Sequence record: MT446391.1
Source of the DNA: Escherichia virus TH13
Strand: one strand, 5' to 3'
Length of the DNA: 45,377 nucleotides
The notes beneath the pieces were generated by a model. The model had not been told where the DNA came from. It did no database searches and saw only the letters and a list, made by a program, of their open reading frames with translations. Each line of letters starts with the position of its first letter. Position 1 is the stretch's first letter. A program made the translations under genes and the position numbers. Positions 1 through 45,185 of this stretch are shown piece by piece.

Positions 1-11
1 TAACCATCCTA

Positions 12-36
12 GCCCGCCGATTTGGTGGGCTTTTTT
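12..36 (+). terminator. putative rho-independent terminator upstream of packaging genes
   Basis: stem gcccgcc/ggtgggc (one G-U pair) followed by a T6 run; coordinates approximate. Confidence 0.4.
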
Positions 37-41
37 GTGCC

Positions 42-50
42 TGTTATAAT
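42..50 (+). promoter_or_regulatory. extended -10-like element (TGtTATAAT)
   Basis: tgttataat about 50 nt upstream of the first ORF; no convincing -35. Confidence 0.3.
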
Positions 51-98
51 CCCCTTAGATGGCAGGGCCGTCTCTTATGTTGCCGATGGTCGGCGCAT

Positions 99-671
99 AT
101 GCACAAAAGGGCTTATATCATGGCAGAAATTAAAGTTAAGGGCCGACGCGCCAAACTGGACGGACGAGTAGCAGTAACCCCGCGCCGTAAACCAGGCGAG
201 CAAACCGAGCATACCAATCTCGGACCTGAAATCGAGTACGGCAAGCGCCGTAAAGGCGGCAAATGTGGACGCCCTACTGACTACAGATCCGTTTACTGCG
301 ACCAGCTTCGCCGCTATTTTGCCGACGCCGACGCCTGGCAGGTCAACTACTCCGATAAAGGCGCTGCGCAAGTAATCCCCCGCAACAAAATGCCAACCTT
401 CGGTCGTTTTGCCGCAGAAATTGGCGTAGGCGTTGCCTGCCTGTACCGCTGGGCGCGCGCGCATGAGGAGTTCGCCGAGGCGATGGCGGACGCTATGGAG
501 CTACAGAAAACTTTCCTGATGGAAGCCGGTGGCGTGACCATCGCGGCAGGCTTCGCTACGTTCCTGCTTAAGGCAAACCACGGCGTCCGCGACGATGTGC
601 CGCTGGATGACGACGAAGATGATAACGGCGACGTCGTAGTGGAACCTACCGGCAAAGGCCAGGGTGAATAA
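99..671 (+). CDS. terminase small subunit (putative); start may be the internal ATG at 120
   Basis: 190-aa ORF immediately upstream of and overlapping (TAATG) the large terminase gene; basic N-terminus and acidic C-terminal tail typical of TerS; position-based call. Confidence 0.55.
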   Translation: MHKRAYIMAEIKVKGRRAKLDGRVAVTPRRKPGEQTEHTNLGPEIEYGKRRKGGKCGRPTDYRSVYCDQLRRYFADADAWQVNYSDKGAAQVIPRNKMPTFGRFAAEIGVGVACLYRWARAHEEFAEAMADAMELQKTFLMEAGGVTIAAGFATFLLKANHGVRDDVPLDDDEDDNGDVVVEPTGKGQGE

Positions 672-2056
672 TGCGTAACTATGCGGCAGAACACCGCGCA
701 CTGGAACGCGCGATCGCAAAGCGCAACCGACCGCCGCGCCCGACACGCGTTGCGCAGGCCGTACGCCTTTACCAGCCCGATTGCCTTCCCCACCAGGTGG
801 AACTACTGCGCGACACAAAGACCAAAATACTCGGCCTGTGTTCCGGCTTCGGTGGCGGAAAGTCATGGGTCGCGGCGCGTAAGGTCATCCAGCTTCTGAC
901 ACTGAACCCGGGTCATGACGGCATCGTGACCGAGCCGACTATCCCACTCCTGGTTAAAATCATGTATCCGGAACTGGAGAAGGCTTTCGACGAGGCTGGA
1001 TTCCGGTGGAAGTTCAATAAGCAGGACAAGATTTATAGCGTGCTGGTGAAAGGCAAATGGACCCGCGTTATTTGCGAGTCAATGGAGAACTACACACGTC
1101 TTATCGGTGTTAACGCCGCGTGGATTGTTGCCGACGAGTTCGACACCACGAAGCAAGACGTTGCAATGGCGGCGTATCACAAATTGCTCGGTCGTCTGCG
1201 TGCTGGCTTGGTACGCCAGTTCGTCATCGTGTCCACCCCGGAAGGCTACCGGGCGATGTACCAGATTTTCGAAGTGGAGAAGGACAGCCAGAAACGTTTG
1301 ATCCGGGCGAAGACCACGGACAACCACCATTTACCGGCGGACTTTATAGACACGCTGCGCAGTCAGTACCCAGCTAACCTGATCGACGCGTACCTGAACG
1401 GCCTGTTTGTTAACCTTACGTCGGGCGCGGTGTACAAGATGTTCAACCGCGAGGAGAACGCCAGCACCGAAGAAGTGCAGCCGGACGACACACTGATTAT
1501 CGGTATGGACTTTAACGTCACGAAAATGGCGGCGGTTGTGTATGTCAGACGGCAGCGCGTCACCGAAAACAAGGAGTTCCGCGACGAGATTCACGCGGTG
1601 GATGAATTTGTGGACCTGTTTGACACCCCGGCTATGATTGAGGCGATCGAGGAGCGCTACCCGGAACATTGTGCCGCCGGTAGGGTCGTCGTTTACCCGG
1701 ATAGCAGCGGCAAATCCCGCAAGACGGTCAACGCGTCGTCGTCCGATATCGCACAACTGGAAGACGCTGGCTTCGAGGTGGAGTATGACAGCGTTAACCC
1801 GCCTGTGAAAGACCGACTGATCGCGATGAATACGATGATGTGCAACTCGAAGGGCGTGCGCCAGTATTTTGTCAACCTGGATAAATGCCCTACACTAGCG
1901 AAATGTCTGGAACAGCAGGTGTACGACCTGAAGAAAGGCGAACCGGATAAAACGGCCGGGGTGGACCACATGAATGATGCAGCGGGCTATCCAATTGCGC
2001 ACCTGTTCCCAGTGATTCGTCCGATCGCCGTTGTTCCAACTGTAGACTTCTACTAA
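671..2056 (+). CDS. terminase large subunit
   Basis: 461 aa; Walker A-like GFGGGKS near N-terminus; located between TerS and portal. Confidence 0.8.
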   Translation: MRNYAAEHRALERAIAKRNRPPRPTRVAQAVRLYQPDCLPHQVELLRDTKTKILGLCSGFGGGKSWVAARKVIQLLTLNPGHDGIVTEPTIPLLVKIMYPELEKAFDEAGFRWKFNKQDKIYSVLVKGKWTRVICESMENYTRLIGVNAAWIVADEFDTTKQDVAMAAYHKLLGRLRAGLVRQFVIVSTPEGYRAMYQIFEVEKDSQKRLIRAKTTDNHHLPADFIDTLRSQYPANLIDAYLNGLFVNLTSGAVYKMFNREENASTEEVQPDDTLIIGMDFNVTKMAAVVYVRRQRVTENKEFRDEIHAVDEFVDLFDTPAMIEAIEERYPEHCAAGRVVVYPDSSGKSRKTVNASSSDIAQLEDAGFEVEYDSVNPPVKDRLIAMNTMMCNSKGVRQYFVNLDKCPTLAKCLEQQVYDLKKGEPDKTAGVDHMNDAAGYPIAHLFPVIRPIAVVPTVDFY

Positions 2057-2066
2057 GGAAACGAAC

Positions 2067-3587
2067 ATGACCGTTAACGTTGACAACCAGCACCCCCTCT
2101 ATGCGCGCATCGCGCCAGAGTGGAAAATGATCCGGGATTGTGTAGCAGGGGAGCGCGCTGTGAAGGCGTGCGGCCCTTTGTACCTGCCACATCCTGCCAG
2201 CGGCGACAATACTGACCCGAAATCACGGGCGCGGTATAAGGCGTATAAGCAACGCGCTGTATTCCTGAACGCCACCGCCCGCACACTTAACGCGCTGTTA
2301 GGCGTTGCCTTTGCTAAACCGGTAAGTCTCGACCTTTCCGGGGCGATGGCGGACCTTATTGACGACGTAGACGGCAGTGGTATGCCGCTGCCGCAACTCC
2401 TGCGCGGTGCTATGTCTGAAGTTCTGCAATCAGGTCGTGCGGGCTTTATGGTGGACTACGATCGCCAGGCGCATTTTGATGAACTGGGTAACGTAGTACC
2501 GCAGACAGCCGCTGAGATGGCGTCACACCGCCCGCTTATCCGCCTGTACACGGCAGAACAGATCATCAACTGGCGGCAGACCCACGGAGCCGATACGCTG
2601 ATTGTGCTGAAGGAGACGGACGAAATCAGCACCGAAGACCCGGACGACTTCGCAAACCACGAAGTAACAATCTGGACTGAATTGCGCATGATTAACGGTG
2701 CAGCACACGCCCGCCGCTGGTACTACAACGCCGACACGTCCGAGGTGCAAATGGACTTGCCGCGCGGATTCACCCGCACCGACCTGGTGCCGCTGGTGGA
2801 TGCTACCGGTAAGGCACTGACACAACTTCCGTTTTGCTGGTGTGGCGCGGTGGACAACAACGCAACGCCAGACGCCGCTCCGCTGGCAGATATCGCGTCC
2901 ATCAACATTAAGCACTACAACGCCGAAGCGGACGTCGCCGAGATCGCGCACATCGTGGGCCAACCTACCCTGGTTGCGACGGGCTTGACTCAATCATGGG
3001 CGGACAAGAACCTGAAGGGAGGCATTGCCCTCGGTGCGACTAAGGGCGTTATCCTGGGCCAGAACATGGACGCTAAACTGATCCAGGCGGAGGAGCGCAA
3101 CTTGTCGGTTGCACTGTGTGAGCGTCGCGAGTTGCAAATGGCTAAACTTGGCGCAGCCCTGGTTGAGAAGGGGACCGCACCTAAGACGGCAACCGAGGCG
3201 GCCTACGATGCGCAGACTGATAACAGTATCCTGTCGCTTATTGCCGGTAACGTTGAGAAGGCTTTCAACCGTGCGCTGCAAATCGTGCAGCTATTCACGG
3301 GCGACACCGCCGACCAGCGCGTAACGCTGAACAAGTTCTACACTGAAATCACGGTTGATGCGCAGCTTATGACCGCGATGATGTCGGGTGTGCAGACTGG
3401 TACGGTCCGACTTGCTGACTTCATCAAGTGGATGATGGCCCAGGGCGTCATTGACGACTCGCAAACCGTCGAGCAGGTGGAAGACGAATTGCGAAATCAG
3501 AATCCATTGCCTCAAATGTCCCCTGATGCGGTAGAATCTACCGAAGAAGACCCGGACAAGGTAGCGGACAATGGCGAGAACGATTAA
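2067..3587 (+). CDS. portal protein
   Basis: 506 aa ORF with good RBS (aaggaaac) directly after the terminase; canonical position and size. Confidence 0.75.
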   Translation: MTVNVDNQHPLYARIAPEWKMIRDCVAGERAVKACGPLYLPHPASGDNTDPKSRARYKAYKQRAVFLNATARTLNALLGVAFAKPVSLDLSGAMADLIDDVDGSGMPLPQLLRGAMSEVLQSGRAGFMVDYDRQAHFDELGNVVPQTAAEMASHRPLIRLYTAEQIINWRQTHGADTLIVLKETDEISTEDPDDFANHEVTIWTELRMINGAAHARRWYYNADTSEVQMDLPRGFTRTDLVPLVDATGKALTQLPFCWCGAVDNNATPDAAPLADIASINIKHYNAEADVAEIAHIVGQPTLVATGLTQSWADKNLKGGIALGATKGVILGQNMDAKLIQAEERNLSVALCERRELQMAKLGAALVEKGTAPKTATEAAYDAQTDNSILSLIAGNVEKAFNRALQIVQLFTGDTADQRVTLNKFYTEITVDAQLMTAMMSGVQTGTVRLADFIKWMMAQGVIDDSQTVEQVEDELRNQNPLPQMSPDAVESTEEDPDKVADNGEND

Positions 3588-4674
3588 TCAACATATGGCG
3601 GATCGCATGATCCGTCGTCACATCTTCACCCAGCGCCTGAGCAATGACCAGGCGCGGCGGGTGCTGGCTATGTGGGAGAAGTTCCGGCCCACGTTACTGG
3701 GTAAGCTGACCGAGTTACTTGATGGCAAAAAGTCCATGAGCAACAAGGCACTTACCACACTATTAACGCAACTCGACAAGACCGTCAAAACGGAACTGCG
3801 CGCCGAGTTTAAAGTGCTGGCGGAGAGCCTTCGGGAGTTCGCCGACACCGAGGCTGATTATCTCGCTGACACACTAACGGCAGCGATCCAGCCCGCGGTC
3901 GCCGTGCCAGCGGTCGAAGTAGTGGGCGTTGTTACCGGCGCGCAGATTGCAGCGACGGCAATGAAAAACCAGTTCCAGGGTAACACCATGATGCAATGGC
4001 CTGACTCACTTTCCGAGTGGACCAGGACGCAGATCGGCAATCAGGTGCGCGCTGGATTCATCCAGGGCAAGCCGACTATGGAAATTATTGCGGACGTGAG
4101 GCGCGCGCTCGGCGGTCGAAGTGCGCAAGCTATCTCAAGCGTTGTTAAGTCCGCGGTCAACCACTATGCGGCGACCGCCCGCGAACTAATGGTAAAAGCA
4201 AATGACGATATTCTCGAAGGTCGCCAATGGTTGGCTACATTGGACACGCATACTTCTCCCATGTGCCAGCTACGCGATCGCCTGTTTTATCCGGTTGATG
4301 TTACTCCCGACACCAAAGGAAAGCGCGGCGGGAAAGTGGTGGCGGGGTCACAATATGGCGCTGGTCCGGGCAAGCTGCATTATTGCTGCCGTTCGACGGA
4401 GACGTGGAAAGTCAAAGGTATGGAAGATTGGCCCAGTGGTAAGCGTCCGGCACTGAAGGCTGACGCGGGCAGATTGCTGAGCGAGCAGGTCGACGCGCAG
4501 ACTGATTTCTTCTCATGGGTGCAGCGCCAGCCGCGCCATATTCTGGAAGAATTATACGGAGTGCAACGCGCCGACCAGATTATGCGCGGAGTGAAAGTGC
4601 CGAAGATGTTCACCGATTCCGGCGAACTAATGACTATCGCACAGCTTAAAAACCGGGGGTTATGGCGTGATTAA
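3571..4674 (+). CDS. head morphogenesis / minor capsid protein
   Basis: 367 aa ORF overlapping portal stop; canonical position after portal. Confidence 0.6.
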   Translation: MARTINQHMADRMIRRHIFTQRLSNDQARRVLAMWEKFRPTLLGKLTELLDGKKSMSNKALTTLLTQLDKTVKTELRAEFKVLAESLREFADTEADYLADTLTAAIQPAVAVPAVEVVGVVTGAQIAATAMKNQFQGNTMMQWPDSLSEWTRTQIGNQVRAGFIQGKPTMEIIADVRRALGGRSAQAISSVVKSAVNHYAATARELMVKANDDILEGRQWLATLDTHTSPMCQLRDRLFYPVDVTPDTKGKRGGKVVAGSQYGAGPGKLHYCCRSTETWKVKGMEDWPSGKRPALKADAGRLLSEQVDAQTDFFSWVQRQPRHILEELYGVQRADQIMRGVKVPKMFTDSGELMTIAQLKNRGLWRD

Positions 4675-4996
4675 ATATGCAGCGATTGGACTGGTTATCG
4701 GTCTGGCGGTAGGATTCTGGCTAGGCGACTCCTATCGTACTGGCGTAGTGGCGGAGGCGGCGCAAGAAGCGCAAGCCCAAGCCCAACGGCAGCAAACTAA
4801 AGTTGTTGAGCGCTCCGTGCAGGCCGAACAGGCCCGCGACGTAGAATACCGGACTATAACGAAAGAGGTTGTTAAATATGTTACGCGCCCTAACCGCCCT
4901 GATTGTAGTTTTGATGCTGAGCGCGTGCGGATCAAGCAACGTGCCGTTGATGCCGCTAACGGAGTCGGCACTGCGACCGCCGTGCAAGTTCGATAG
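4667..4996 (+). CDS. i-spanin (Rz-like inner membrane spanin)
   Basis: GTG start with GGGGG RBS; N-terminal TM helix (AAIGLVIGLAVGFWL) then Q/A/E/R-rich coiled-coil periplasmic region; contains the o-spanin gene in the +1 frame. Confidence 0.75.
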   Translation: MIKYAAIGLVIGLAVGFWLGDSYRTGVVAEAAQEAQAQAQRQQTKVVERSVQAEQARDVEYRTITKEVVKYVTRPNRPDCSFDAERVRIKQRAVDAANGVGTATAVQVR

Positions 4997-5108
4997 CCCG
5001 TCCGCAGACCCCGACGAAGACTTGCTGGTCGATGTTAAGAATATGGAATGTGGTGCGAAGCTGAGGGCGCAAGTGCTGGAGTTGCAGAAAATAATTCGGG
5101 GGCCGTGA
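4878..5108 (+). CDS. o-spanin (Rz1-like outer membrane lipoprotein)
   Basis: signal peptide with lipobox LSAC (LIVVLMLSAC GSS), short proline-rich mature region; starts inside the i-spanin gene and extends past it; ORF track start at TTG 4869, ATG with RBS at 4878. Confidence 0.75.
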   Translation: MLRALTALIVVLMLSACGSSNVPLMPLTESALRPPCKFDSPSADPDEDLLVDVKNMECGAKLRAQVLELQKIIRGP

Positions 5109-5121
5109 TGGCCCCCTTTTT
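5098..5121. terminator. bidirectional terminator between spanin genes and reverse-strand moron
   Basis: gggggcc-gtgat-ggccccc hairpin followed by T5; sits between convergent genes. Confidence 0.6.
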
Positions 5122-5122
5122 G

Positions 5123-5887
5123 TTAGCGCGGAATACCGCAAATCTCGTTTAGCGTCTTCACGTCCAGCGCCACCGCCGTGGACTTCGGCTTATCCGGGTA
5201 TGGAATAAACTGTTCAACTTCAGGCCACGCCTTGATCAGTTTCTTATCGGTATTGTGCATATCCAGTACGCCGGTAACTGTTAGTTTGAACGCGTCATAC
5301 TTCGCACGCAATTCGCGGCGGGCCTTGTCGTTGCGATCTAGGCGCTTGCAGAAGTCGTGGTCTGCCGGGTAGTCTACGCGACCGCGCGGAAGATATATCG
5401 GCAGCGATTTTCCGTCCTCGTCCACTTCGCACACTGAAGCCAGCATAACTTCCTCGTACCCCGGTACGATATCACCGAGATCGGGAGATAGCTTGTTCAA
5501 ATATTTCTCTTCCCAGTATCCGCGGTGCAGGCGGTATCGGTATCCATCGCCGCTCAATGATACGGTGCGAACATTACCGCCTGCGTTGATATCGAATCCG
5601 GCGCTATAAACGCTGCCGATGCCTTTTGGCCGGTCGGAGTTATAGCTATACGTCGCCTTGTCGGTGTAAACGCTAACGCCATACATCTGCGACTGGTTAT
5701 CGCGGATTTCTGCGATATATGCGCGTAACTCGGCGAACGTGCGAATGCCTTCCGGCATACAGTCCAGCGTAATGGCGTACGCCAAGTCGCGAGAGTCCAT
5801 CATGATGGATTTTGCTTCGGTCGCGATTTCATGGTCGCGCAGGATGTTAGCCAGAATCTTGTTTTTAACGTCTTTTGTCAGTCTCAT
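5123..5887 (-). CDS. hypothetical protein (reverse-oriented moron in head module)
   Basis: 254 aa from internal ATG (MRLTKDVKNK...) of the 403-aa track ORF; upstream extension would overlap the scaffold gene; no recognisable motifs. Confidence 0.6.
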   Translation of the reverse strand: MRLTKDVKNKILANILRDHEIATEAKSIMMDSRDLAYAITLDCMPEGIRTFAELRAYIAEIRDNQSQMYGVSVYTDKATYSYNSDRPKGIGSVYSAGFDINAGGNVRTVSLSGDGYRYRLHRGYWEEKYLNKLSPDLGDIVPGYEEVMLASVCEVDEDGKSLPIYLPRGRVDYPADHDFCKRLDRNDKARRELRAKYDAFKLTVTGVLDMHNTDKKLIKAWPEVEQFIPYPDKPKSTAVALDVKTLNEICGIPR

Positions 5888-5908
5888 TTTTGCGTCCTCG
5901 TTGTTGGT

Positions 5909-5931
5909 GTGCAACCAATATATGCAACCAA
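5909..5931. promoter_or_regulatory. paired TGCAACCAAT motifs in divergent control region
   Basis: two direct copies of tgcaaccaat 13 bp apart between divergent genes 5123..5887 and the scaffold gene; same motif recurs about 20 times in the window. Confidence 0.45.
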
Positions 5932-6035
5932 TACGCGGATTGCAAGCGAATTTTGCGATTATTTTTATCACTGATAATATTAGAGGCGTGAAGTCGAGCG
6001 GGTGGCCCGCTCTGCCACAATCCCAGGGGGATAGC

Positions 6036-6737
6036 ATGAAACTTACTAAAGCAGAATATGACGCGTTGCCGGAAGGTATGAAGGCGCTTTTTGTTGCCGA
6101 TGGTGACGGGTATAAATCAACGTTCATGACCGCAGAAGAAGTACAGGCGGAGATCAAGGGTCTGAAAGACAACAACGCGAAGCTGGTGAGCGAGAAGAAA
6201 GCAGAAGCTGAACGTCGCGCCGAAGCCGAGCGCCTTGCGAAAGAGAAAGAGGAAGCCGCCGCGCGCAAAAATGGCGACCTCGAAGCGATCGACAAGTCTT
6301 GGAAAGATAAGTTTGCGAAACACGAAGCAGACACATCGGGAAAAATCGAAGCCTATCGCAAGCAGATCCACGATCTAACCATCGGCAGCGCTGCCAAAGA
6401 CCTGGCGTCGAAGCTGTTCGGTAAGAATGCGGGCATCATGCAACGCCACGTAATGGACCGCCTGACGCTGGAAGACGGCGAAGACGGCAGCTTGAAAGTG
6501 CGTGTCTTGCAGGATGGCAAACCGTCCGCGCTGACTATGGAAGAGCTTGAAAAAGAGTTCCGTAATAACGCCGATTTCGCATCCGTCCTGGCCGGCACGC
6601 CAGCAGGAGGCGCTCCTAGCAAACCGACGCAGGTTGTCGAAGATGTGAAGTCTAAAATTACGATGGGCCATAGCTTCGGTATCACCGATCTCACCAAACA
6701 GGCCGGGGATATCATCGCTAAAATGGGCGACGAGTAA
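6036..6737 (+). CDS. scaffolding protein (putative)
   Basis: 233 aa from ATG with RBS caggggga; charged, coiled-coil-like (EAERRAEAERLAKEKEEAAARK); directly upstream of major capsid gene. Confidence 0.6.
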   Translation: MKLTKAEYDALPEGMKALFVADGDGYKSTFMTAEEVQAEIKGLKDNNAKLVSEKKAEAERRAEAERLAKEKEEAAARKNGDLEAIDKSWKDKFAKHEADTSGKIEAYRKQIHDLTIGSAAKDLASKLFGKNAGIMQRHVMDRLTLEDGEDGSLKVRVLQDGKPSALTMEELEKEFRNNADFASVLAGTPAGGAPSKPTQVVEDVKSKITMGHSFGITDLTKQAGDIIAKMGDE

Positions 6738-6834
6738 GCGGATTGCCCGCGAAAGCGGGCAATTTTGCGAGCGCGTAAAACTAAGGTAACATTAATGCCA
6801 CTGGGCGAATGCTCACAACTCAAAGGATTTCGAT

Positions 6835-7935
6835 ATGTCTTTAACAGTGTTCCAGCGTAAACTCGTTACCGCGGTTACGCAAATGATCCCCGACAACCTG
6901 AACGTTTTCAACGCCGCCGCCAATGGCGCTGTTGTTCTCGGTACTGGTGAAGTGCTGAAGGACGTTATTGAGAAAATGTCCGTAGGCTTGATCGCCAACC
7001 TCGTTACCGACCGTAACGCCTACGCCCCCGTCGGCACTCCGGCGACCGCGAAAGTGCTGGCGCGTATGCTAACCAACTCGGTTAACCTTTCCGCAAAAGT
7101 GGGTCCGGTAGCAATCACTAAGGCTATGATGGCTAAGATCGAAACCAACGTTAACAGCGTTGCGGCTGAGATTGCGGCACAGGCTACTCAAGCGATTATG
7201 CTGCACTACCTGAAAGCTGGTATCGGCGCAAGTAAAGCGGCGATCGAAAGCAACGCAGCGGCAAAATACACCCAACCGGCGCGCGTTGACGGCGTTGGCG
7301 GTCGTACCTTCCCGACCCTGGCAGACTTCCCGCTGGCGGCTTCTAAGTTCGGCGATCAGGCGTCTTTGATTAAGTCTTGGTTTATGGACGGCGTTACCTG
7401 GGCAAACTTCATTGCGTACCAGGCACTCCCTTCCGCTGAACAGGTATTCGCAATTGGCGATCTCCAGGTAATGGGTGATGGCCTGGGCCGTCGCTTCATT
7501 ATCTCCGATGCCGCTGCCGATGCTATGGGGGCGGGTAACATGCTGGGTCTGGTCCCTGGCGCGGTTGCAGTTACCACCAACGGCCTCGATATGCTGGCGC
7601 AGGAGAAAGGCGGTAACGAGAACATCGAGCGCTGGTGGCAGGGCGAGTTCGACTTCAACGTGGCTGTTAAAGGCTACCGTCTGAAGGCGTCCGCTCGAAC
7701 CCCGATCGAAGGTGTGCGCTCGTTCAAACTGGACGATATTACCACTTCCGCTAACTGGGAACTGGACCAGGGCCAGGTAGACAACGCACCGGCAACCGTT
7801 CAGGATGTTGGCGCTGTGGGTGATGGCGATACTAAAGGTCGTCGTAAGACCCAGGCCGCACAGGCAGTGCCTACCCGTCACATCAAGGAAACCGCGGGCG
7901 TACTGGTTACGCTGACGGCTACCACCGCGTCTTAA
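6835..7935 (+). CDS. major capsid protein
   Basis: 366 aa, RBS aaagga, follows scaffold gene and is followed by a strong terminator; canonical position. Confidence 0.7.
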   Translation: MSLTVFQRKLVTAVTQMIPDNLNVFNAAANGAVVLGTGEVLKDVIEKMSVGLIANLVTDRNAYAPVGTPATAKVLARMLTNSVNLSAKVGPVAITKAMMAKIETNVNSVAAEIAAQATQAIMLHYLKAGIGASKAAIESNAAAKYTQPARVDGVGGRTFPTLADFPLAASKFGDQASLIKSWFMDGVTWANFIAYQALPSAEQVFAIGDLQVMGDGLGRRFIISDAAADAMGAGNMLGLVPGAVAVTTNGLDMLAQEKGGNENIERWWQGEFDFNVAVKGYRLKASARTPIEGVRSFKLDDITTSANWELDQGQVDNAPATVQDVGAVGDGDTKGRRKTQAAQAVPTRHIKETAGVLVTLTATTAS

Positions 7936-7954
7936 TCGACGCACATCCCAAAGG

Positions 7955-7978
7955 GGCGGGCTTATGCCCGCCTTTTTT
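7955..7978 (+). terminator. rho-independent terminator after capsid gene
   Basis: ggcggg-cttatg-cccgcc hairpin followed by T6. Confidence 0.65.
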
Positions 7979-7993
7979 ATAGGAGTGAATACA

Positions 7994-8494
7994 ATGTATG
8001 GCGACCCGCAAACCTTTGTCGATTATGCCACTGCGCGAGGCGTTGAAATTACGCTGGGCGATGCAACGCGACACATTACCATCGTTAATGACTTCCTTAA
8101 CGGCATCAACTGGATCGGCGAACAGGCGGACCAGACAGGAATAGACGCATGGCCCCGCATCAATTACCCATCGGACGGGAAGCCGGTGCGCGACACGCTA
8201 ACCGAAGCCGTGGCGGTAGTGCCTGTCGGGCAAATCGTAGACTTTGCATCAATCCCCGTTGCCGTTGAGCAAGCTGTTTACCGGCTGGCGCTGTTGGTGG
8301 CGGACGAGATCGATATTTCTCCTGTCGGCGATGGTAAAGAGACTATTCGCGAAACGGTCGGCCCGATCACGATGGAATATGACCCGGCGTCGATTGGTAG
8401 CGGGGTGTCGTTCCCGTGGTGGGATGGCTTGTTAGGCCACTGGGTTGATTCAGGCGGCAACGCCGCAGGCAATTTCGACGTATACAGGGGGTGA
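7994..8494 (+). CDS. hypothetical head-tail joining region protein
   Basis: 166 aa from ATG with RBS aggagtg (track ORF starts upstream at 7964). Confidence 0.5.
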   Translation: MYGDPQTFVDYATARGVEITLGDATRHITIVNDFLNGINWIGEQADQTGIDAWPRINYPSDGKPVRDTLTEAVAVVPVGQIVDFASIPVAVEQAVYRLALLVADEIDISPVGDGKETIRETVGPITMEYDPASIGSGVSFPWWDGLLGHWVDSGGNAAGNFDVYRG

Positions 8495-8495
8495 T

Positions 8496-8615
8496 ATGAA
8501 TCCTGCATTACTCGCAGCTATTATCGCTGCAAATACTAAACAGCCGACGGAACAAGAACCGGAGCCAGAACCAGTACCACCAGCACAGGAGAGTGAAGAA
8601 GATGGCGGGCTTTAA
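8496..8615 (+). CDS. small hypothetical protein (39 aa, Pro/Glu-rich)
   Basis: ATG 3 nt after preceding stop with RBS gggggtga; below ORF-track cutoff; coordinates approximate. Confidence 0.25.
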   Translation: MNPALLAAIIAANTKQPTEQEPEPEPVPPAQESEEDGGL

Positions 8616-8955
8616 TTACGCGGGGTTAAAGCGGAAAGTCAATCCGCTGATTAAAAAGTTCGGCATGACGGCTACGGTGACGCGTCCGGGATCGGTTGAC
8701 CGCGTAGACGGCGACGAAGTGATAATCCCGCCAACGTCGTTCGACGTCATCGGTCTTCGCGAGGAGTACAAGCCTAGCGAGATCGACGGAACGCGTATCG
8801 TTGCCGGTGATGTGAAGTTTTTATGTCGGGCGGTTGAGCAATTGCGGGTGGGAGACCTGGTTAACCTGGACGGCACTGACTACCGGGTCGTCAACCCTAA
8901 CCCACTGCAACCGGCTGGCACTACCATGCTGTTTCAACTACAGCTAAGGGGCTAA
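8602..8955 (+). CDS. hypothetical head-tail connector region protein
   Basis: 117 aa from ATG (MAGFNYAGLK) with RBS caggagag. Confidence 0.5.
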   Translation: MAGFNYAGLKRKVNPLIKKFGMTATVTRPGSVDRVDGDEVIIPPTSFDVIGLREEYKPSEIDGTRIVAGDVKFLCRAVEQLRVGDLVNLDGTDYRVVNPNPLQPAGTTMLFQLQLRG

Positions 8956-8956
8956 C

Positions 8957-9550
8957 GTGGCTGAAGTCTACTCATTCGCCGCCACTATTGCTACGTGGGT
9001 GGATAAGACGAAGGAGAACAACGACAAGGCGGTGCGGGCGTACGGTATGCAAATACTCGGACGCCTTATTGAGATCTCCCCGGTGGGCGACCCCCGCCGG
9101 TGGAAAATTAACAAGGCTTACGCGCTTGCACGCGAACACGCGAACAAGGTGAACGCCGCACAGCGCCGCAAGAACGGCGGCAAACTGAAGCGCGGGCAGA
9201 AGAAGCACGCCAGTGTGCTCATCTCATTCAAAACTAAAAACGGCAACGTCACGTTCCGCCAGCGTGGCTGGGCCGCGAAGAATTACACCGGTGGGCGCTT
9301 CCGGGGAAACTGGCAGGTTACGTTCGACCGCCCGGCTGTCGGCGCTATCGACCGCGTGGACAAGGCCGGAACGGCAACATTAGCCGCGGGGCGTGAAGTG
9401 CTGGCGCATTACGATTCCGGGGAATACGGGTCGATCTGGTTTACTAACAATGTGCCGTATGCGCAGCGACTTGAGTATGGCTGGAGTAAACAAGCGCCTG
9501 CGGGTATTGTTCGCGTCGTAGCGGCAGAAATTAATTCGAAGGTGAAATAA
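8957..9550 (+). CDS. hypothetical head-tail / tail completion region protein
   Basis: 197 aa, GTG start with RBS aagggg; position between capsid and major tail genes. Confidence 0.5.
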   Translation: MAEVYSFAATIATWVDKTKENNDKAVRAYGMQILGRLIEISPVGDPRRWKINKAYALAREHANKVNAAQRRKNGGKLKRGQKKHASVLISFKTKNGNVTFRQRGWAAKNYTGGRFRGNWQVTFDRPAVGAIDRVDKAGTATLAAGREVLAHYDSGEYGSIWFTNNVPYAQRLEYGWSKQAPAGIVRVVAAEINSKVK

Positions 9551-9972
9551 TGAGCAATACTCTAATCCGCAAGGCGCTTAACAGCGTAGTAGAAGAATTA
9601 TCGGTTAGCCTGAGCACTAGCACGCGCCCGATAAAGGTTAACTGGGAGAACGTGAGTGGCGACCACGCAAACGGCAGCGGTGTCTACCTGGAACCATATC
9701 TGCTTCCGGCCCCTACCCAATTTGTGGGCTTCCAGCAGAAGGGCCGGATCTATGCAGGCGTGTATCAGATTGCCGTGGTATTTCCTGCGGGCACGGGCAC
9801 ACAGTATGCGAGCGAACTGGCTGACGCCATCGCGACGTCTGACAAGTGGCAGGCCGTAAGGCTTACCGGTGCTGCATTCCAGCTTCAAGACGCGCCATAC
9901 ACCAGTTCGGTGATTGAGGATGTTGATCGCGCCCGCATCGTGGTTACAGTGCCCTATTCCTGTTGTGCCTGA
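9550..9972 (+). CDS. putative tail terminator / tail completion protein
   Basis: 140 aa, translationally coupled (ATAATG) to preceding gene; immediately upstream of major tail protein. Confidence 0.45.
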   Translation: MSNTLIRKALNSVVEELSVSLSTSTRPIKVNWENVSGDHANGSGVYLEPYLLPAPTQFVGFQQKGRIYAGVYQIAVVFPAGTGTQYASELADAIATSDKWQAVRLTGAAFQLQDAPYTSSVIEDVDRARIVVTVPYSCCA

Positions 9973-10033
9973 TTTGGCGCAATTCTGCGCGTGCTGTATC
10001 ATTAAACCGTATATCTAAACAGGAGCGTTCATT

Positions 10034-10759
10034 ATGGGTTATCAACTTCCTAACGGGTCCAGCGTCCAGATTGGGTCCGTACTGGGCAGCGGCATCGCTG
10101 TTACGGCAGCTACCAACGCCGCCGCATCAATCTCTGACCTTACGCAAGGTTGCGTAATTACCTGCGCGGCTTCGCATGGTCTGGTTGTTGGCGACGTTGT
10201 TATGTTCACTAAAACCCCGTGGGTCCGAGCGCTTAATCGCGCATTCATCGTGGGTAAAGTAGCCGAGAACGACGTGACGCTGGCGCGCTTCGACTCCTCT
10301 GACGTCACAAAATACCCGACCGGCGCTTTCAACGCAGGCACTCCGGGCGAAGTGGTGAAGGTGTCGAGCTTTATCGACTTCCCTTTCATTACTAACGTTG
10401 CCGTGTCGGGTGGCGACCAGCAGACTACTACCTTCCAGCCGTTGCAGGTGAACACCGCAATCAGTCTTAACACCACGAAAAACCCGTTGGTACAGACTTA
10501 CACCTTCACCCACGACGAAGAAGACCCGATCCGCCCAATCCTGGAAGACCTGGACGACACACAGAAAACCACTGTGATTAAGTTCACTAACCCAGCGGCA
10601 GCAAGCGGCAAAGGTGAGATCCGTATCTACCCGGCAAAGGTATCTTTCCAGAAGATTCCTTCCGCTGAAGTAAACAACGTGGAAACTGTACAGTCCACTC
10701 TGACCATGCAGTCTGATATGGTTATCTACCGTAAGGATCTGGTCGAGGCGTTGTCTTGA
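10034..10759 (+). CDS. major tail protein (putative)
   Basis: 241 aa, strong RBS aggag, followed by strong terminator and then the G/GT chaperone and tape measure genes. Confidence 0.6.
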   Translation: MGYQLPNGSSVQIGSVLGSGIAVTAATNAAASISDLTQGCVITCAASHGLVVGDVVMFTKTPWVRALNRAFIVGKVAENDVTLARFDSSDVTKYPTGAFNAGTPGEVVKVSSFIDFPFITNVAVSGGDQQTTTFQPLQVNTAISLNTTKNPLVQTYTFTHDEEDPIRPILEDLDDTQKTTVIKFTNPAAASGKGEIRIYPAKVSFQKIPSAEVNNVETVQSTLTMQSDMVIYRKDLVEALS

Positions 10760-10789
10760 TTTGGTCGCTTAAATAGCGAGTGTTAATAT

Positions 10790-10815
10790 GGGGCCAGCAC
10801 GGCCCCTTTTTTTTT
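10790..10815 (+). terminator. rho-independent terminator after major tail gene
   Basis: ggggcc-agcac-ggcccc hairpin followed by T9. Confidence 0.65.
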
Positions 10816-10831
10816 ATTGGAGAATACTACA

Positions 10832-11194
10832 ATGGCTAAAGCACCACTCTTCACACTTGACCCAAAGCCGACCTTTAAGCTGCCGATTGAGATCCCGCGC
10901 CCTGGTGAGAACGAACCCGGCAAAATGACGTTTACCGTACGCCACCGCCCGATCGACGAATTTTCGCAGACCATGCAGGACACTGAACGCAAGCTGTCGG
11001 AATATGACGACAATGATCCGGACGGCTTTAATGTTATGGTTGAGGCCATCATGCACGTCGCCGAAGGCTGGAATCTGCCGGACGAATTTAACGCGGAGAA
11101 CGTCCGCCGCCTGGTGGTCAACTATCCACGCGCGTTCGGTGTGTTCCACACGTCGTACTATCTCGAACTGATGGGGTTGCGTGAAAAAAACTAA
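10832..11194 (+). CDS. tail assembly chaperone (gpG-like)
   Basis: 120 aa from ATG with RBS ggag; immediately upstream of tape measure region; ends ...GLREKN with slippery A_AAA_AAC heptamer before the stop. Confidence 0.65.
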   Translation: MAKAPLFTLDPKPTFKLPIEIPRPGENEPGKMTFTVRHRPIDEFSQTMQDTERKLSEYDDNDPDGFNVMVEAIMHVAEGWNLPDEFNAENVRRLVVNYPRAFGVFHTSYYLELMGLREKN

Positions 11195-21733: not shown

Positions 21734-21955
21734 TTACCACTCCCGTGATTTAACTGATACCGTACCAGAGAAGTTGCCGTCACTATCGGCAGACAGACCA
21801 GTGAAGCGCATATCCACATCTCCGGCTGGCACTTTCTTCCCGTCGACGTAGCGCAACATGCAGCTACCGTAGGCAACCGTAATGCAATCGCCGTTGTTGC
21901 GTTCTACAGCACAACCGGACAACAGAACCGCACAAATCATAATTAAAGTTTTCAT
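21734..21955 (-). CDS. small lipoprotein (candidate receptor-blocking superinfection exclusion lipoprotein)
   Basis: 73 aa from ATG with strong RBS aggaga; signal peptide MKTLIMICAVLLSGC with lipobox LSGC; divergent from tail fiber gene; function inferred by analogy to Cor/Llp-type lipoproteins. Confidence 0.55.
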   Translation of the reverse strand: MKTLIMICAVLLSGCAVERNNGDCITVAYGSCMLRYVDGKKVPAGDVDMRFTGLSADSDGNFSGTVSVKSREW

Positions 21956-41343: not shown

Positions 41344-41483
41344 CACCAGCACTAATGGCGGGATTCTCGCAGAAGTTTATTTCTGTTGATGCCTGCATAG
41401 CAGATTATGAGATGGACGGCATCGCTACTGTATGCGATGGCGACACGAAAACTGCCGATGAGATTGAGGAGACAGAGCAATGA
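41340..41483 (+). CDS. small hypothetical protein (47 aa)
   Basis: ATGA-coupled to both neighbours; below track cutoff. Confidence 0.3.
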   Translation: MTPALMAGFSQKFISVDACIADYEMDGIATVCDGDTKTADEIEETEQ

Positions 41484-42037
41484 AATTACTATTCCGCCGC
41501 AAATCGGACGGGCGCATTCTTAAGCCGATACAGACCCTGGACGCATACGTGCGCCTACAACAACCGGCAAACAAAAAAGTATTCCGCGCGCCAACAAGCA
41601 CGCTGCCGCAGTTCTTCACGGTACACGCCCACGATATCGAGCGCGGCGATGTGCTGCGTGATATTCGCGACTGCAGTATGTGGATCGTCGAGTATGTCGG
41701 GCTTCATGGCCTGCGTATGCAATCCCGCAAGGATGGCGTAGCCGGTATGACTTACTTCGGCCTCGTAAATTACGAGCGAGTGGGTCGCAAATACAGCCTT
41801 CGGGACCGCCAGCCGCATGAGCGCGTCGAGTTCCGCAAGTCGCAGCCAGCCTATGCCACCTACGACGCGAGCAAAGTGATGGAGCCGATCCGCCAGGCCA
41901 CGCGTGAGATAGTCAATCGCTTTGATGCCGTGACGAATGCACAGCGCCAGGCGCTGGAATACGGTGCGGGATTTATCCGTGTCGAACCAGACGGCAGCAT
42001 GAAGGCCATCGACCCGCGCTCGGTGATTCTGAAATGA
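41480..42037 (+). CDS. hypothetical protein
   Basis: 185 aa. Confidence 0.5.
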   Translation: MKLLFRRKSDGRILKPIQTLDAYVRLQQPANKKVFRAPTSTLPQFFTVHAHDIERGDVLRDIRDCSMWIVEYVGLHGLRMQSRKDGVAGMTYFGLVNYERVGRKYSLRDRQPHERVEFRKSQPAYATYDASKVMEPIRQATREIVNRFDAVTNAQRQALEYGAGFIRVEPDGSMKAIDPRSVILK

Positions 42038-42180
42038 GTGCGTCTATCCGTGATATGCTTCAGCATAACCGCTTCGAGATAGGCGGTAGGGTGTTTCGCA
42101 ATTACTTCGTGGCGCGTGCATGGGCGCGCCATATTGGCAAACCGGAAGGGGCAATTCGATGCTATACGTCTTCGCGGTAG
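42034..42180 (+). CDS. small hypothetical protein (48 aa)
   Basis: ATGA-coupled to preceding gene; below track cutoff. Confidence 0.25.
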   Translation: MSASIRDMLQHNRFEIGGRVFRNYFVARAWARHIGKPEGAIRCYTSSR

Positions 42181-42244
42181 TATGTGGCGGTAGTCTGGCG
42201 GCCCTGGTGCTGTTGGCGTCGGTTATTAGTCTGGTTAAATACCT

Positions 42245-42544
42245 ATGGGGCAGATTATGATTCATGATGTGATTTATTGGTTTGGTTTGATCTGCGGGCT
42301 ATGCCTGCTTACCGCGGTGCTGTTGGGCATCCTGATGTTCGTCGTATGGCCTGCAGTGGAAGCCGCCAGTATTACCCGCATGACGTTCGAGGTATACAAG
42401 CGCCGCGGGATCACGGAGCACCCGACCAGGTTACGCATGTGGTGGCTGTGGTATCGGGATATGATTGGGGGCCGGATGTTCGAGGCCGTCCGATCGGAAG
42501 GATGGGAATGGAAAGGCGTCGGCAAGTGGTCCGTTTTCGATTAA
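42245..42544 (+). CDS. small membrane protein
   Basis: 99 aa; N-terminal TM segment (VIYWFGLICGLCLLTAVLLGILMFVVWPAV). Confidence 0.5.
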   Translation: MGQIMIHDVIYWFGLICGLCLLTAVLLGILMFVVWPAVEAASITRMTFEVYKRRGITEHPTRLRMWWLWYRDMIGGRMFEAVRSEGWEWKGVGKWSVFD

Positions 42545-42562
42545 TTATGCAAGCGTGATATA

Positions 42563-42596
42563 GTCCCAGTGAGCTAAAACTTACTGGGACTTTTTT
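42563..42596 (+). terminator. hairpin plus T-run directly abutting holin start codon
   Basis: gtcccagt-(12 nt)-actgggac followed by T6, then ATG of the holin-like gene with no room for an SD. Confidence 0.5.
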
Positions 42597-42887
42597 ATGG
42601 ATAAGCTAAACGAGTGGTTATTTGCCCTCGCATGTCTGGCGGGTGGCTTCGTAGGCGCACGCATTCATGGTGAGGCTACGAAGGGGCCGCTAAACTTCGT
42701 TTTGTATGTTGTAGTTGGCTTCCTGTGTGCCATATTTGGCGCACCGGCTATTGCCGAGTGGGCTGGTTTGTCGGGGGAGCGCACTGTCGCCGGTTTGGGC
42801 TTCGTAACCGCAATCTTCTGGATGCCAATCGCCGACCGGATCAGGGAGACTATTGCGTCGTTCCGACTTCCGGGGGGTGCAAAATGA
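42597..42887 (+). CDS. holin-like membrane protein
   Basis: 96 aa, three predicted hydrophobic helices, immediately upstream of second small membrane protein and endolysin. Confidence 0.55.
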   Translation: MDKLNEWLFALACLAGGFVGARIHGEATKGPLNFVLYVVVGFLCAIFGAPAIAEWAGLSGERTVAGLGFVTAIFWMPIADRIRETIASFRLPGGAK

Positions 42888-43129
42888 TTATCTCCGTCCT
42901 GTTGTTTGTTATCATCGGGGCTTCGTCCCTGTTTAACGTGTATGCGCCGTCCGTCCGGGATGGCATTTTCGGTCGGGTGCTGTATCTGTTAACGGCAATG
43001 GTCTGTATTATCGGATTGTTGCAAACAGGAGACGTATCAGATGCCACCTGGACCGCGTTAATCTGGCTGTTTGCATTGCGCACACTGCGTAATGCTGTTT
43101 TGAATGGGGTAAAACATGCGATTCAGTGA
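42884..43129 (+). CDS. holin/antiholin-like small membrane protein
   Basis: 81 aa from ATG with RBS gggggg; two to three hydrophobic helices; overlaps endolysin start. Confidence 0.5.
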   Translation: MIISVLLFVIIGASSLFNVYAPSVRDGIFGRVLYLLTAMVCIIGLLQTGDVSDATWTALIWLFALRTLRNAVLNGVKHAIQ

Positions 43130-43607
43130 CAACGGTCTAAGATTTACGGCAGCATGGGAGGCTTTCAGCCCGGTGCCGTATTTCGCGACCAAGAAAGAGC
43201 AGGCCCGCGGCCTGTACACTTGGGGTTATGGTCATACCGGCACTAATCCGCCTCGAAGCATTACCCGAGCGGAAGCGCTGGATCTGCTTAAGCGCGATGT
43301 GGCGTATGCTGAGGACTGGGTGAACAAATACGCGCATAAGAGTATTAACCAGGCGCAATTTGACGCGCTGGTGGACCTGGTAATCAACGCCGGTCCTGGT
43401 CCGATCGTACCGGATGACGTCGCGAATGATTTCGATGATGCGGTACGGTTGGGCGACTGGGCGAAGGTCCGTGCTACGCTGCCGCTGTTCCGCAAGCAAG
43501 GCGGGGAAGTGCTTAAGGGTCTGGTGCGCCGTGCAATCGGCAGACAGGCGTTGTTTGATGGTAAGCAGTGGGACGTTGCCGAGCGAATCGGTCGTAACGC
43601 AGCATAA
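43116..43607 (+). CDS. endolysin (lysozyme-like muramidase)
   Basis: 163 aa; N-terminal ...FTAAWEAF...YTWGYGHTG... resembles the catalytic Glu and GYGHT region of phage lysozyme-type endolysins; follows holin-like genes. Confidence 0.65.
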   Translation: MRFSDNGLRFTAAWEAFSPVPYFATKKEQARGLYTWGYGHTGTNPPRSITRAEALDLLKRDVAYAEDWVNKYAHKSINQAQFDALVDLVINAGPGPIVPDDVANDFDDAVRLGDWAKVRATLPLFRKQGGEVLKGLVRRAIGRQALFDGKQWDVAERIGRNAA

Positions 43608-43623
43608 TACGAGGTGACACAGT

Positions 43624-43791
43624 ATGTTAAAAAGTATTCTTGATCATAATGCGGACGCGCTTGCCGCACTGGCTAAAACCGAAGATCCGGGCGCACGCGC
43701 TATCATCGCGGACACTATCAGCCACGCTGGGGTCTTCGATGCGAAGCTGCCAAGCCCACCACCGCAGGAGGAATCTGGTCCTGAAGCGTAA
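43624..43791 (+). CDS. small hypothetical protein (55 aa)
   Basis: ATG with RBS gaggtga; below track cutoff. Confidence 0.35.
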   Translation: MLKSILDHNADALAALAKTEDPGARAIIADTISHAGVFDAKLPSPPPQEESGPEA

Positions 43792-43798
43792 ACAATCA

Positions 43799-45171: not shown

Positions 45172-45185
45172 TTAGACAAGTATTC

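Follow-up and report, generated by a model that had tools for sequence, protein, structure and literature searches.

Organization of the locus

Within the window, i.e. the whole stretch of 45,377 nucleotides that was analyzed, two overlapping plus-strand genes lie behind a head morphogenesis gene and code for a putative inner-membrane spanin (i-spanin) and a putative outer-membrane lipoprotein (o-spanin). These genes, their surroundings and the holin and endolysin genes are the following:

3571..4674, plus strand: MuF-like head morphogenesis gene (phrog_241 head morphogenesis, 2.4e-114), directly upstream of the i-spanin gene
4654..4659, plus strand: CGGGGG, resembling a Shine-Dalgarno sequence, within the MuF-like gene (3' end) and 7 nt before the i-spanin GTG
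4667..4996, plus strand: putative i-spanin gene, GTG start, 109 aa (open reading frame and phrog_2536 match)
4862..4868, plus strand: AAAGAGG, resembling a Shine-Dalgarno sequence, within the i-spanin coding sequence and 9 nt before the o-spanin ATG
4878..5108, plus strand: putative o-spanin gene, 76 aa, ATG start, frame +1 with respect to the i-spanin gene
5098..5122, both strands: intrinsic-terminator-like hairpin (stem-loop 5098-5116), GGGGGCC-GTGAT-GGCCCCC, then TTTTT
5123-5890 or longer, minus strand: Nmad5 gene, convergent with the spanin genes, between the pair and the scaffold gene
42597..42887, plus strand: holin-like gene 1, 96 aa (phrog_2359 holin, 8.5e-32)
42884..43129, plus strand: holin-like gene 2, 81 aa (phrog_2508 holin, 1.3e-26, the longer ORF being scored)
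43116..43607, plus strand: endolysin gene, 163 aa, Phage_lysozyme (PF00959, 2.6e-20; phrog_7 endolysin, 2.1e-35)

Read in the +1 frame, the o-spanin gene begins 211 nt into the i-spanin gene; the two have 119 nt in common, and 112 nt of the o-spanin gene lie 3' of the i-spanin stop codon. The pair, which the first-pass annotation had described as embedded, thus has an overlapped architecture. The i-spanin GTG overlaps the stop codon of the MuF-like gene by 8 nt; this start junction is kept in five Dhillonviruses and the upstream CGGGGG is invariant in their alignment. Likewise, the AAAGAGG upstream of the o-spanin gene is invariant in the nucleotide alignment (columns 196-202), and its ATG is the start used in the KarlBarth and GeorgBuechner annotations. 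Both ORFs were intact in all five aligned genomes, with variable sites at codon positions one, two and three numbering 7/5/25 in the part coding for the i-spanin only and 4/0/14 in the part coding for the o-spanin only, a pattern that indicates coding-type selection in each frame among the relatives.

PHROG and Pfam searches placed the holin-like genes and the lysozyme gene, reported earlier at 42.6-43.6 kb, at 42597-43607. This holin-holin-endolysin cassette is tightly packed, with an ATGA start/stop overlap between the two holin-like genes, and no hydrophobic N-terminal segment was detected in the endolysin.

Topology and family of the two proteins

The sole hydrophobic segment of the i-spanin covers residues ~4-20 (Kyte-Doolittle 15-residue maximum of 2.33 at residue 5); later windows never exceed 1.6, as expected for a single N-terminal transmembrane domain. 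This domain would be followed by a long helix, a proline-containing linker with Cys80 and a second helix. An AF2 single-sequence model, of low confidence (pLDDT 58, pTM 0.18) and used for secondary structure only, placed helices at residues 5-72 and 84-97 around the Pro/Cys linker. Cys80 is not conserved, since the Shemara i-spanin has no cysteine. The protein matches the PHROG 'Rz-like spanin' family phrog_2536 (2.1e-36), and tblastn found it in 666 phage records. Its only Pfam match was DUF945 at 0.086, below the cut-off of that model.

The o-spanin carries the signal peptide MLRALTALIVVLMLSAC, then GSS, and a lipobox LSAC with Cys17 and a Gly at +2. Hence, the lipobox cysteine, which is invariant in eight diverse homologues, is not followed by an Asp, the residue that retains lipoproteins in the inner membrane. 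The mature protein would be small (60 aa) and proline-rich (7 Pro), with two invariant periplasmic cysteines, Cys36 and Cys58, that could form homotypic disulfides between molecules. Across five phage groups, the invariant residues are C17, P35-C36, D44, D46-E47-D48-L49 (DEDL), D52, C58 and L62-R63. The o-spanin matches the PHROG 'Rz-like spanin' families phrog_5672 (4.3e-26) and phrog_1267 (1.7e-11) and was found by tblastn in 648 phage records. Taken together, the transmembrane segment, the lipobox and the family matches sustain the initial identification of the two genes as a spanin pair.

We also considered a unimolecular spanin of the T1 gp11 type. Kyte-Doolittle 15-residue values of the o-spanin exceed 1.6 only at residues 1-8, with no hydrophobic segment past the signal peptide; this type was rejected, as the protein lacks a C-terminal transmembrane domain and the window holds no other candidate. 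A lipobox scan of all ORFs of the circularized sequence gave no other spanin candidate in the window, and the ORF directly after the endolysin gene (43624-43791) has no hydrophobic segment and no lipobox. Only one other ORF in the scan was convincing as a lipoprotein gene (21734-21955, minus strand), beside the tail-fibre genes. By this position alone, it is a candidate superinfection-exclusion gene, and position alone was also the ground on which we rejected it as a spanin.

With regard to known families, the Pfam search (E <= 0.1) returned no match for the o-spanin and placed neither protein in the lambda Rz (Phage_lysis) or Rz1 families, and NCBIfam and PDB-sequence searches with both proteins gave nothing significant and no solved relative. 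At the sequence level, the pair thus shows no detectable link to lambda Rz/Rz1. Both components of the 'Jersey' overlapped family, which includes the Dhillonviruses HK578, JL1, EP23, EK99P-1, SSL-2009a and SO-1, have been described (Kongari et al. 2018, PMC6139136). The tblastn matches of the pair include Jerseyvirus, Cornellvirus and Kagunavirus, and its sequences (PHROGs 2536 and 5672/1267) assign it to this family.

Position of the pair on the circular genome

The window represents the complete TH11 genome (GenBank MT446389.1) in circularly permuted form, 100% identical to it, with a net length difference of 72 bp whose location was not found, both junctions being contiguous. The phage belongs to the genus Dhillonvirus and shares >90% identity with ~150 Dhillonvirus records. 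In MT446389.1, the last base of the window runs straight into its first base, and a 70-aa ORF spans this junction, its stop codon being bases 1-3 of the window. We searched for a terminal redundancy of 20-100 bp in the window and for tandem repeats at the junction of the TH11 record, and found none. Dhillonviruses use headful packaging, and writing their genomes from terS is only a convention (PMC9022532, PMC13348001).

Since the end and the start of the window are contiguous in MT446389.1 and an ORF crosses the junction, the spanin genes lie downstream of the endolysin gene, on the same strand and at a distance of 6437 bp (~6.4 kb) from the endolysin stop to the i-spanin start. The displacement of about 38 kb that had been proposed is therefore a coordinate artefact, and the apparent distance of 38.9 kb is a product of the linearization point. 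The case illustrates how distances taken from a linearized, circularly permuted phage genome can mislead. The interval comprises seven ORFs, and the order after the endolysin gene (which ends at 43607) is as follows: a soluble protein of 55 aa, an ORF of 380 aa that bears the annotation calcineurin-like phosphoesterase in relatives, the 70-aa ORF, terS, terL, portal, the MuF-like gene and the spanins. This circular order is lambda-like, with the lysis genes followed by the packaging and head genes; the exception is the spanins, which come after the early head genes.

The spanin genes are thus not directly 3' of the endolysin gene in a contiguous holin-endolysin-spanin cassette. Such a neighborhood is the typical context of spanins and not a defining feature. 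The first-pass annotation had also placed the pair between head morphogenesis and scaffold genes, which is correct on the upstream side, directly behind the MuF-like gene; on the other side, the scaffold gene is not next, as the hairpin (5098-5116) and the minus-strand Nmad5 gene intervene. Finally, the split placement had been presented as notable. It is invariant in ~150 Dhillonvirus records, common to Guernseyvirinae and annotated in GenBank, where relatives such as KarlBarth and GeorgBuechner carry i-spanin and o-spanin genes at exactly this spot. The split is therefore real but ordinary, and was already published for this phage group, with the family catalogued in PMC6139136 and the separation reported for phage Schulenberg in PMC6763661.

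Transcription of the spanin genes

The o-spanin stop codon lies within the loop of the 5098-5116 hairpin, which has a predicted folding energy of -18.5 kcal/mol (z = -2.58) and is kept in five Dhillonviruses. It matched the consensus scan on both strands, with an A/T-rich stretch upstream, so that it can serve both convergent genes. The promoter and terminator consensus scans gave site counts no higher than in shuffled sequence, and only the strongest hairpins were used, as inference. On the plus strand, the scan gave no promoter-like site from 1896 to 5098. Two good terminator-like hairpins were found between the endolysin gene and terS (43798-43819 and 11-31), and a TTGGTG-17-TATAAT motif can be read in the sequence at 22-50, just upstream of terS. 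The 5098-5116 hairpin, the 8-nt start/stop overlap and the absence of a promoter-like site from 1896 to 5098 suggest that in Dhillonvirus the spanin genes may be the last two cistrons of a terS-terL-portal-MuF unit that would end at the bidirectional terminator. Translation of the MuF-like gene and of the i-spanin gene is probably coupled.

Instead of belonging to a separate head unit, the spanins could be part of a single long late transcript that is initiated at or upstream of the lysis cassette and reads through the hairpins; this would link them transcriptionally to the holin and endolysin genes. The model for this is lambda, where late transcription proceeds from S-R-Rz across cos to the head genes. 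The lambda-like order from the lysis genes to terS, terL and portal is in keeping with it, as are the location of the spanins on the endolysin strand, no more than 6.4 kb further downstream once the map is circularized, and the chance level of the promoter scans, by which no independent promoter is demonstrated. However, the two hairpins at 43798-43819 and 11-31 intervene, the motif at 22-50 precedes terS, and in Guernseyvirinae minus-strand genes part the spanins from the upstream head genes. We consider the long transcript rather unlikely, and the intervening minus-strand genes imply that co-transcription is not a conserved requirement.

Identity of the pair

The pair is very probably a two-component spanin of Dhillonvirus belonging to the 'Jersey' overlapped family, its function being deduced from the topology, the family and the canonical context of one homologue. 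Alternatively, the inner-membrane protein and the lipoprotein might have a different function, for instance superinfection exclusion or envelope modification, and their genes might by chance occupy the variable slot that separates the MuF-like gene from the scaffold gene. Accessory genes do occupy this slot (Nmad5 here, a metallophosphatase and hypothetical genes in Shemara), and the pair resembles neither of the Pfam families for lambda Rz/Rz1. Against such a role, a lambdoid Klebsiella phage has homologues of the two proteins at the canonical spot behind its holin and lysozyme genes, the pair has all the topological hallmarks of two-component spanins, including the +1-frame overlap and the conserved periplasmic cysteines, and the genome would be left without any spanin. 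This makes a non-spanin function highly improbable.

A more radical possibility is that the +1 frame is open by chance, inside and after a real membrane-protein gene, as might be thought from its short length (76 aa) and from the several GenBank records that omit or truncate it. Nevertheless, the ORF is carried by 648 phage records, its lipobox cysteine and the motif PC...D.DEDL..D.....C...LR are invariant at 29-47% overall identity, its non-overlapping part shows the third-position bias given above, and it has its own ribosome-binding site (AAAGAGG). The conservation of the +1-frame ORF refutes a chance frame, to which we attach practically no probability.

Proposed mechanism

The lambda Rz/Rz1 model is established knowledge, and the mechanism proposed for the two-component spanin is taken from it. 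By analogy, the 109-aa product would be anchored in the inner membrane by its N-terminal helix, with a largely helical domain reaching into the periplasm. Signal peptidase II would cut the 76-aa product at Cys17, after which it would be lipidated and, because there is no Asp at +2, sorted to the outer membrane. The C-terminal parts of both proteins would then bind, and disulfide-stabilized complexes would cross the periplasm through the peptidoglycan mesh. Such complexes are expected to build up harmlessly in late infection and to act only once the holins and the endolysin (42597-43607) have removed the peptidoglycan; at that stage, they would cause fusion or disruption of the inner and outer membrane. 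Because the cell wall, and not the time of synthesis, would control spanin activity, the position of the spanin genes relative to the holin would be free, provided that they are expressed late.

We can further speculate on how the pair reached its position. The MuF-scaffold segment may be an ancestral 'accessory slot' of Dhillonvirus and Guernseyvirinae, in which a spanin cassette of lambdoid origin was captured once and fixed; in Dhillonvirus, its subsequent translational coupling to the MuF-like gene would tie spanin dosage to early head-gene expression and not to the holin clock. This scenario appears improbable to us as a whole. If the coupling to the MuF-like gene does affect lysis efficiency, it would add a small new point on how spanin stoichiometry is set.

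The value of these results lies mainly in correct annotation. The TH11 GenBank record is without annotation, and in many Dhillonvirus records one or both spanins are 'hypothetical' or the +1-frame o-spanin is missed; the coordinates given here are therefore useful for curation. They also bear on the engineering of Dhillonviruses, for example when synthetic genomes are rebooted, as the lysis function is divided between two places. More generally, peptidoglycan-gated spanins can sit outside the lysis cassette.

Comparison with known systems

In other Dhillonviruses (for example KarlBarth Bas17 bas17_0005/0006, GeorgBuechner, TheodorHerzl, HK578, JL1, EP23 and SO-1), the orthologues share 84-98% (i-spanin) and 80-100% (o-spanin) identity with the pair, and the place after the MuF-like gene, the 8-nt start overlap, the overlapped architecture and the terminator are the same as here. 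The only difference concerns the i-spanin C-terminus, with a protein of 109 aa here and in McMelon and of 102 aa in KarlBarth, GeorgBuechner and Lust; due to this longer C-terminus, the overlap is 119 nt here rather than 98 nt.

The Guernseyvirinae (Jerseyvirus BPS11T2, Cornellvirus Shemara, Kagunavirus-like Bas75 and Schulenberg) possess spanins of the same family, at 39-41% identity for the i-spanin and 42-47% for the o-spanin. Their pair, too, lies in the slot flanked by the head morphogenesis gene and the scaffold gene, and on the circular map two holin genes and an endolysin gene come shortly before terS. In contrast to the locus described here, additional genes, of which some are on the minus strand, and an intergenic region precede the pair, so that it lacks coupling to the MuF-like gene; the spanin overlap is shortest in Shemara, at 8 nt, and longest in BPS11T2 and Bas75, at 155 nt. 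For phage Schulenberg, the separation of the spanins from the lysis genes has been stated in print (PMC6763661).

The lambdoid Klebsiella phage ST13-OXA48phi12.5 carries the same family (36% and 29% identity), with the conserved motifs and the overlapped architecture, but in the canonical spot directly after holin and lysozyme, downstream of the antiterminator Q. That record lacks an annotation of the o-spanin. The functional class and topology of lambda Rz/Rz1 match those proposed for the pair, with a type II inner-membrane protein whose periplasmic part is helical (as predicted at low confidence here) and a small, proline-rich outer-membrane lipoprotein in the +1 frame, whereas no sequence similarity is detectable by Pfam. 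In lambda, Rz1 is fully embedded, Rz has 153 aa, and Rz/Rz1 directly follow the endolysin gene R. The T7 spanin pair gp18.5/18.7 is embedded and located between the terminase genes. In T4, the spanin genes PseT.3/PseT.2 are unlinked from the holin and endolysin genes and 'separated', i.e. non-overlapping (PMC6139136). Overall, the T4 and T7 pairs, although of sequence families different from the pair described here, are precedents for unlinked spanins.

Identification of an overlapped spanin gene pair

The first-pass annotation had proposed an i-spanin (inner-membrane component) and an o-spanin (lipoprotein component) at 4667-5108. The two ORFs are:

4667-4996, plus strand: i-spanin, GTG start, 109 aa, beginning MIKYAAIGLVIGLAVGFWLG
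4878-5108, plus strand: o-spanin, ATG start, 76 aa, +1 frame, N-terminus MLRALTALIVVLMLSAC then GSS

We retained this assignment, since the only hydrophobic segment of the i-spanin is N-terminal, the o-spanin carries the lipobox LSAC (Cys17, Gly at +2), and both proteins match PHROGs families annotated 'Rz-like spanin' (phrog_2536, 2.1e-36, for the i-spanin; phrog_5672, 4.3e-26, and phrog_1267, 1.7e-11, for the o-spanin). The o-spanin also has seven prolines and, besides Cys17, cysteines at positions 36 and 58. Plausible ribosome-binding sites were observed 7 nt 5' of the GTG (CGGGGG) and 9 nt 5' of the ATG (AAAGAGG). The o-spanin start lies 211 nt inside the i-spanin gene; 119 nt are common to both, and the o-spanin extends 112 nt beyond the i-spanin stop. 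In standard nomenclature this makes the pair 'overlapped' and not 'embedded', the term used in the first-pass annotation. In a single-sequence AF2 model of the i-spanin (pLDDT 58), a helix (5-72), a Pro/Cys linker and a second helix (84-97) were predicted, an Rz-like layout that is only suggestive at this pLDDT. Neither protein belongs by sequence to the lambda Rz/Rz1 Pfam families, and NCBIfam and PDB searches with both returned no relatives.

Conservation and coding evidence

The tblastn hits to the i-spanin came from 666 phage records, those to the o-spanin from 648. Across the o-spanins of eight phages (four Dhillonviruses, Cornellvirus Shemara, Jerseyvirus BPS11T2, Kagunavirus-like Bas75 and a lambdoid Klebsiella phage), the alignment showed no variation at the lipobox Cys, P35-C36, D44, D46-E47-D48-L49, D52, C58 and L62-R63, at an overall identity of 29-47% to the non-Dhillonvirus members. 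The i-spanin alignment kept the motif T..V.KY...P.R....F....V.....A...AN..G near residues 65-101. In a five-genome nucleotide alignment, both ORFs were intact in all five genomes, and variable sites outside the overlap piled up at third codon positions of each ORF's own frame (7/5/25 by codon position in the i-spanin-only part, 4/0/14 in the o-spanin-only part). Conservation thus refuted the +1-frame ORF as a chance open frame, and the sequences indicate that the pair as a whole is more than chance. Overall, the data show for this pair its topology signals, its family membership, selection on both coding frames and its genomic context.

Neighbouring genes and transcription

The pair is surrounded by the following features:

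99-671: terS, upstream
671-2056: terL, upstream
2067-3587: portal gene, upstream
3571-4674: MuF-like head-morphogenesis gene (phrog_241, 2.4e-114)
5098-5116: hairpin GGGGGCC-GTGAT-GGCCCCC then TTTTT, detected on both strands in a consensus scan, directly after the o-spanin gene
5123-5890, minus strand: Nmad5-domain protein gene (PF18757, 1.2e-56), convergent with the spanin genes inside the head module

The pair had been placed between head morphogenesis and scaffold genes. The MuF-like gene does lie directly upstream, its stop overlapping the i-spanin GTG by 8 nt (a junction invariant in five Dhillonviruses); downstream, the hairpin and the minus-strand Nmad5 gene precede the plus-strand scaffold and major capsid genes. 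This conserved hairpin (-18.5 kcal/mol, z = -2.58), whose loop contains the o-spanin stop codon, stands between the pair and the Nmad5 gene as a predicted terminator common to both.

The 8-nt overlap, the terminator at 5098-5116 and a consensus scan that predicted no plus-strand promoter from 1896 to 5098 point to the spanin genes as the last two, translationally coupled cistrons of a terS-MuF operon; as the promoter and terminator scans gave counts no higher than shuffled expectation, we only infer this operon. Just upstream of terS, a terminator-like hairpin (11-31, then T6) overlaps a TTGGTG-17-TATAAT motif (22-50), overlooked by the promoter scan because its -35 hexamer fits at only 3/6 positions. 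At 11-50, a terminator and a promoter may be paired where the packaging/head operon begins.

The Nmad5 start is ambiguous (255 aa from ATG; counted from the GTG at 6334, the open frame reaches 403 aa; 334 aa as annotated in the Dhillonvirus McMelon), and the longer forms overlap the opposite-strand scaffold ORF. In Dhillonvirus Nmad5, a single K-to-E change escapes the Tmn defence system (PMC11846954).

Distance to the lysis cassette on the circular map

The lysis cassette, tightly packed with overlapping starts and stops, and the region up to terS comprise:

42597-42887: holin-like gene 1
42884-43129: holin-like gene 2
43116-43607: endolysin
55-aa soluble ORF
43798-43819: terminator-like hairpin
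380-aa ORF (in relatives, a calcineurin-like phosphoesterase or DNA repair exonuclease by annotation)
45168-45377 + 1-3: 70-aa ORF spanning the window junction (TAA stop, bases 1-3)
11-31: terminator-like hairpin

By megablast, window 3500-7000 was 100% identical to Escherichia virus TH11 (MT446389.1, genus Dhillonvirus) and matched 157 further records, mostly at 90-96%, nearly all Escherichia/Shigella Dhillonviruses. The window and the TH11 record are circularly permuted relative to each other: window 41464-45377 corresponds to TH11 1-3914 and window 3500-7000 to TH11 7414-10914. Reading both sequences, we found window base 1 directly after base 45377 in TH11, and the ends of MT446389.1 contiguous inside the window at 41463/41464. 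That the linearisation point is arbitrary is shown by the 70-aa ORF, whose last three bases are split off by the window origin. Compared with MT446389.1 (45305 bp), the window (45377 bp) has a net excess of 72 bp, which lies somewhere within 7001-41249. Dhillonvirus assemblies circularise, headful packaging is predicted by PhageTerm, and terS-first is a writing convention for these genomes (PMC9022532, PMC13348001).

From endolysin stop to i-spanin start, the 38,940 bp in window coordinates, reported earlier as a 38 kb separation, become 6,437 bp on the circular map, where the spanins lie downstream of the endolysin and share its strand. Differently linearised records, such as TH11's own, place both loci contiguously; so does that of phage Sponge, whose lysis region spans 29.7-34.1 kb and whose spanins occupy 38.7-39.2 kb. 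The overall order (lysis, packaging, head genes) is that of lambda, except only that the spanin genes follow the MuF-like gene and are not next to the endolysin gene.

Further elements were observed around the cassette. At 42562-42599, the ATG of holin-like gene 1 is adjoined by a 12-bp hairpin (AGTCCCAGTGAG-CTAAAA-CTTACTGGGACT) with a trailing TTTTTT; the hairpin's 3' arm contains the gene's sole Shine-Dalgarno-like GGGA. This hairpin may be a terminator that polymerase has to pass or a translational control element like the lambda S upstream stem-loop. Just upstream, 42245-42544 encodes a 99-aa membrane protein (phrog_2531, unknown function) that may belong to the lysis region. Between the cassette and the 380-aa ORF, 43828-43968 holds a promoter-like TTGACT-18-CATACT, then GAGAGGAG, a strong ribosome-binding site, and an ORF for a hydrophobic 26-aa product (MARKDIWVLAIWTTAAFIGMVICELI). 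The only other convincing lipoprotein ORF (21734-21955, minus strand, 73 aa, MKTLIMICAVLLSGC) adjoins tail-fibre genes, a position that makes it a candidate Cor/Llp-type superinfection-exclusion lipoprotein.

Proposed mechanism and alternatives

The lambda Rz/Rz1 paradigm provides the basis for the proposed mechanism. By analogy, the i-spanin would be a type II inner-membrane protein and the o-spanin an outer-membrane lipoprotein; the two would interact through their C-terminal, periplasmic parts, and their disulfide-linked complexes would cross the periplasm via the murein mesh. Murein would keep these complexes inactive until degraded by holin-released endolysin, whereupon the freed complexes would disrupt or fuse the membranes. 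Because activity would be gated by the cell wall, the spanin genes would not have to be linked to the holin 'clock', and late expression alone would be enough.

Another envelope function for the pair is unlikely, given its full set of spanin hallmarks, a homologue in a canonical lysis context and a genome in which a lipobox scan of ORFs revealed no alternative spanin; the spanin interpretation is well supported. Co-transcription with the lysis cassette through read-through is disfavoured by the two intervening terminator-like hairpins (43798-43819 and 11-31) and by the TTGGTG-17-TATAAT motif.

Comparison with known spanins

Placement outside the lysis cassette, considered notable in the first-pass annotation, is already a known property of the Dhillonvirus lineage, being conserved, annotated and published there, with well-known precedents. 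Kongari et al. (2018, PMC6139136) already assign, for both components, the Dhillonviruses EK99P-1, EP23, HK578, JL1, SSL-2009a and SO-1, together with Jersey-like and K1G-like phages, to the 27-member 'Jersey' family of overlapped spanins; they also describe the T4 spanin genes as lying apart from t and e. The BASEL phages KarlBarth, GeorgBuechner, TheodorHerzl and Oekolampad carry an annotated 'i-spanin' and 'o-spanin' at the same position, and PHROG-based annotations read 'Rz-like spanin'.

The split is kept beyond the genus: Shemara encodes two holins and an endolysin at 41.1-42.1 kb, and its spanins, at 7.3-7.9 kb, occupy the slot flanked by head morphogenesis and scaffold that BPS11T2 and Bas75 also use. 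For phage Schulenberg, the separation has been described explicitly in the literature (PMC6763661). By contrast, in the lambdoid Klebsiella phage ST13-OXA48phi12.5 (MK714353.1), homologues of both proteins directly follow holin and lysozyme, downstream of Q: an i-spanin partner labelled 'hypothetical protein' (2851-3201) and an unannotated, overlapped 80-aa o-spanin with lipobox LCSC, homologous to that of TH11 (3077-3319). Of the contextual evidence, this canonical placement argues most strongly for a genuine spanin family.
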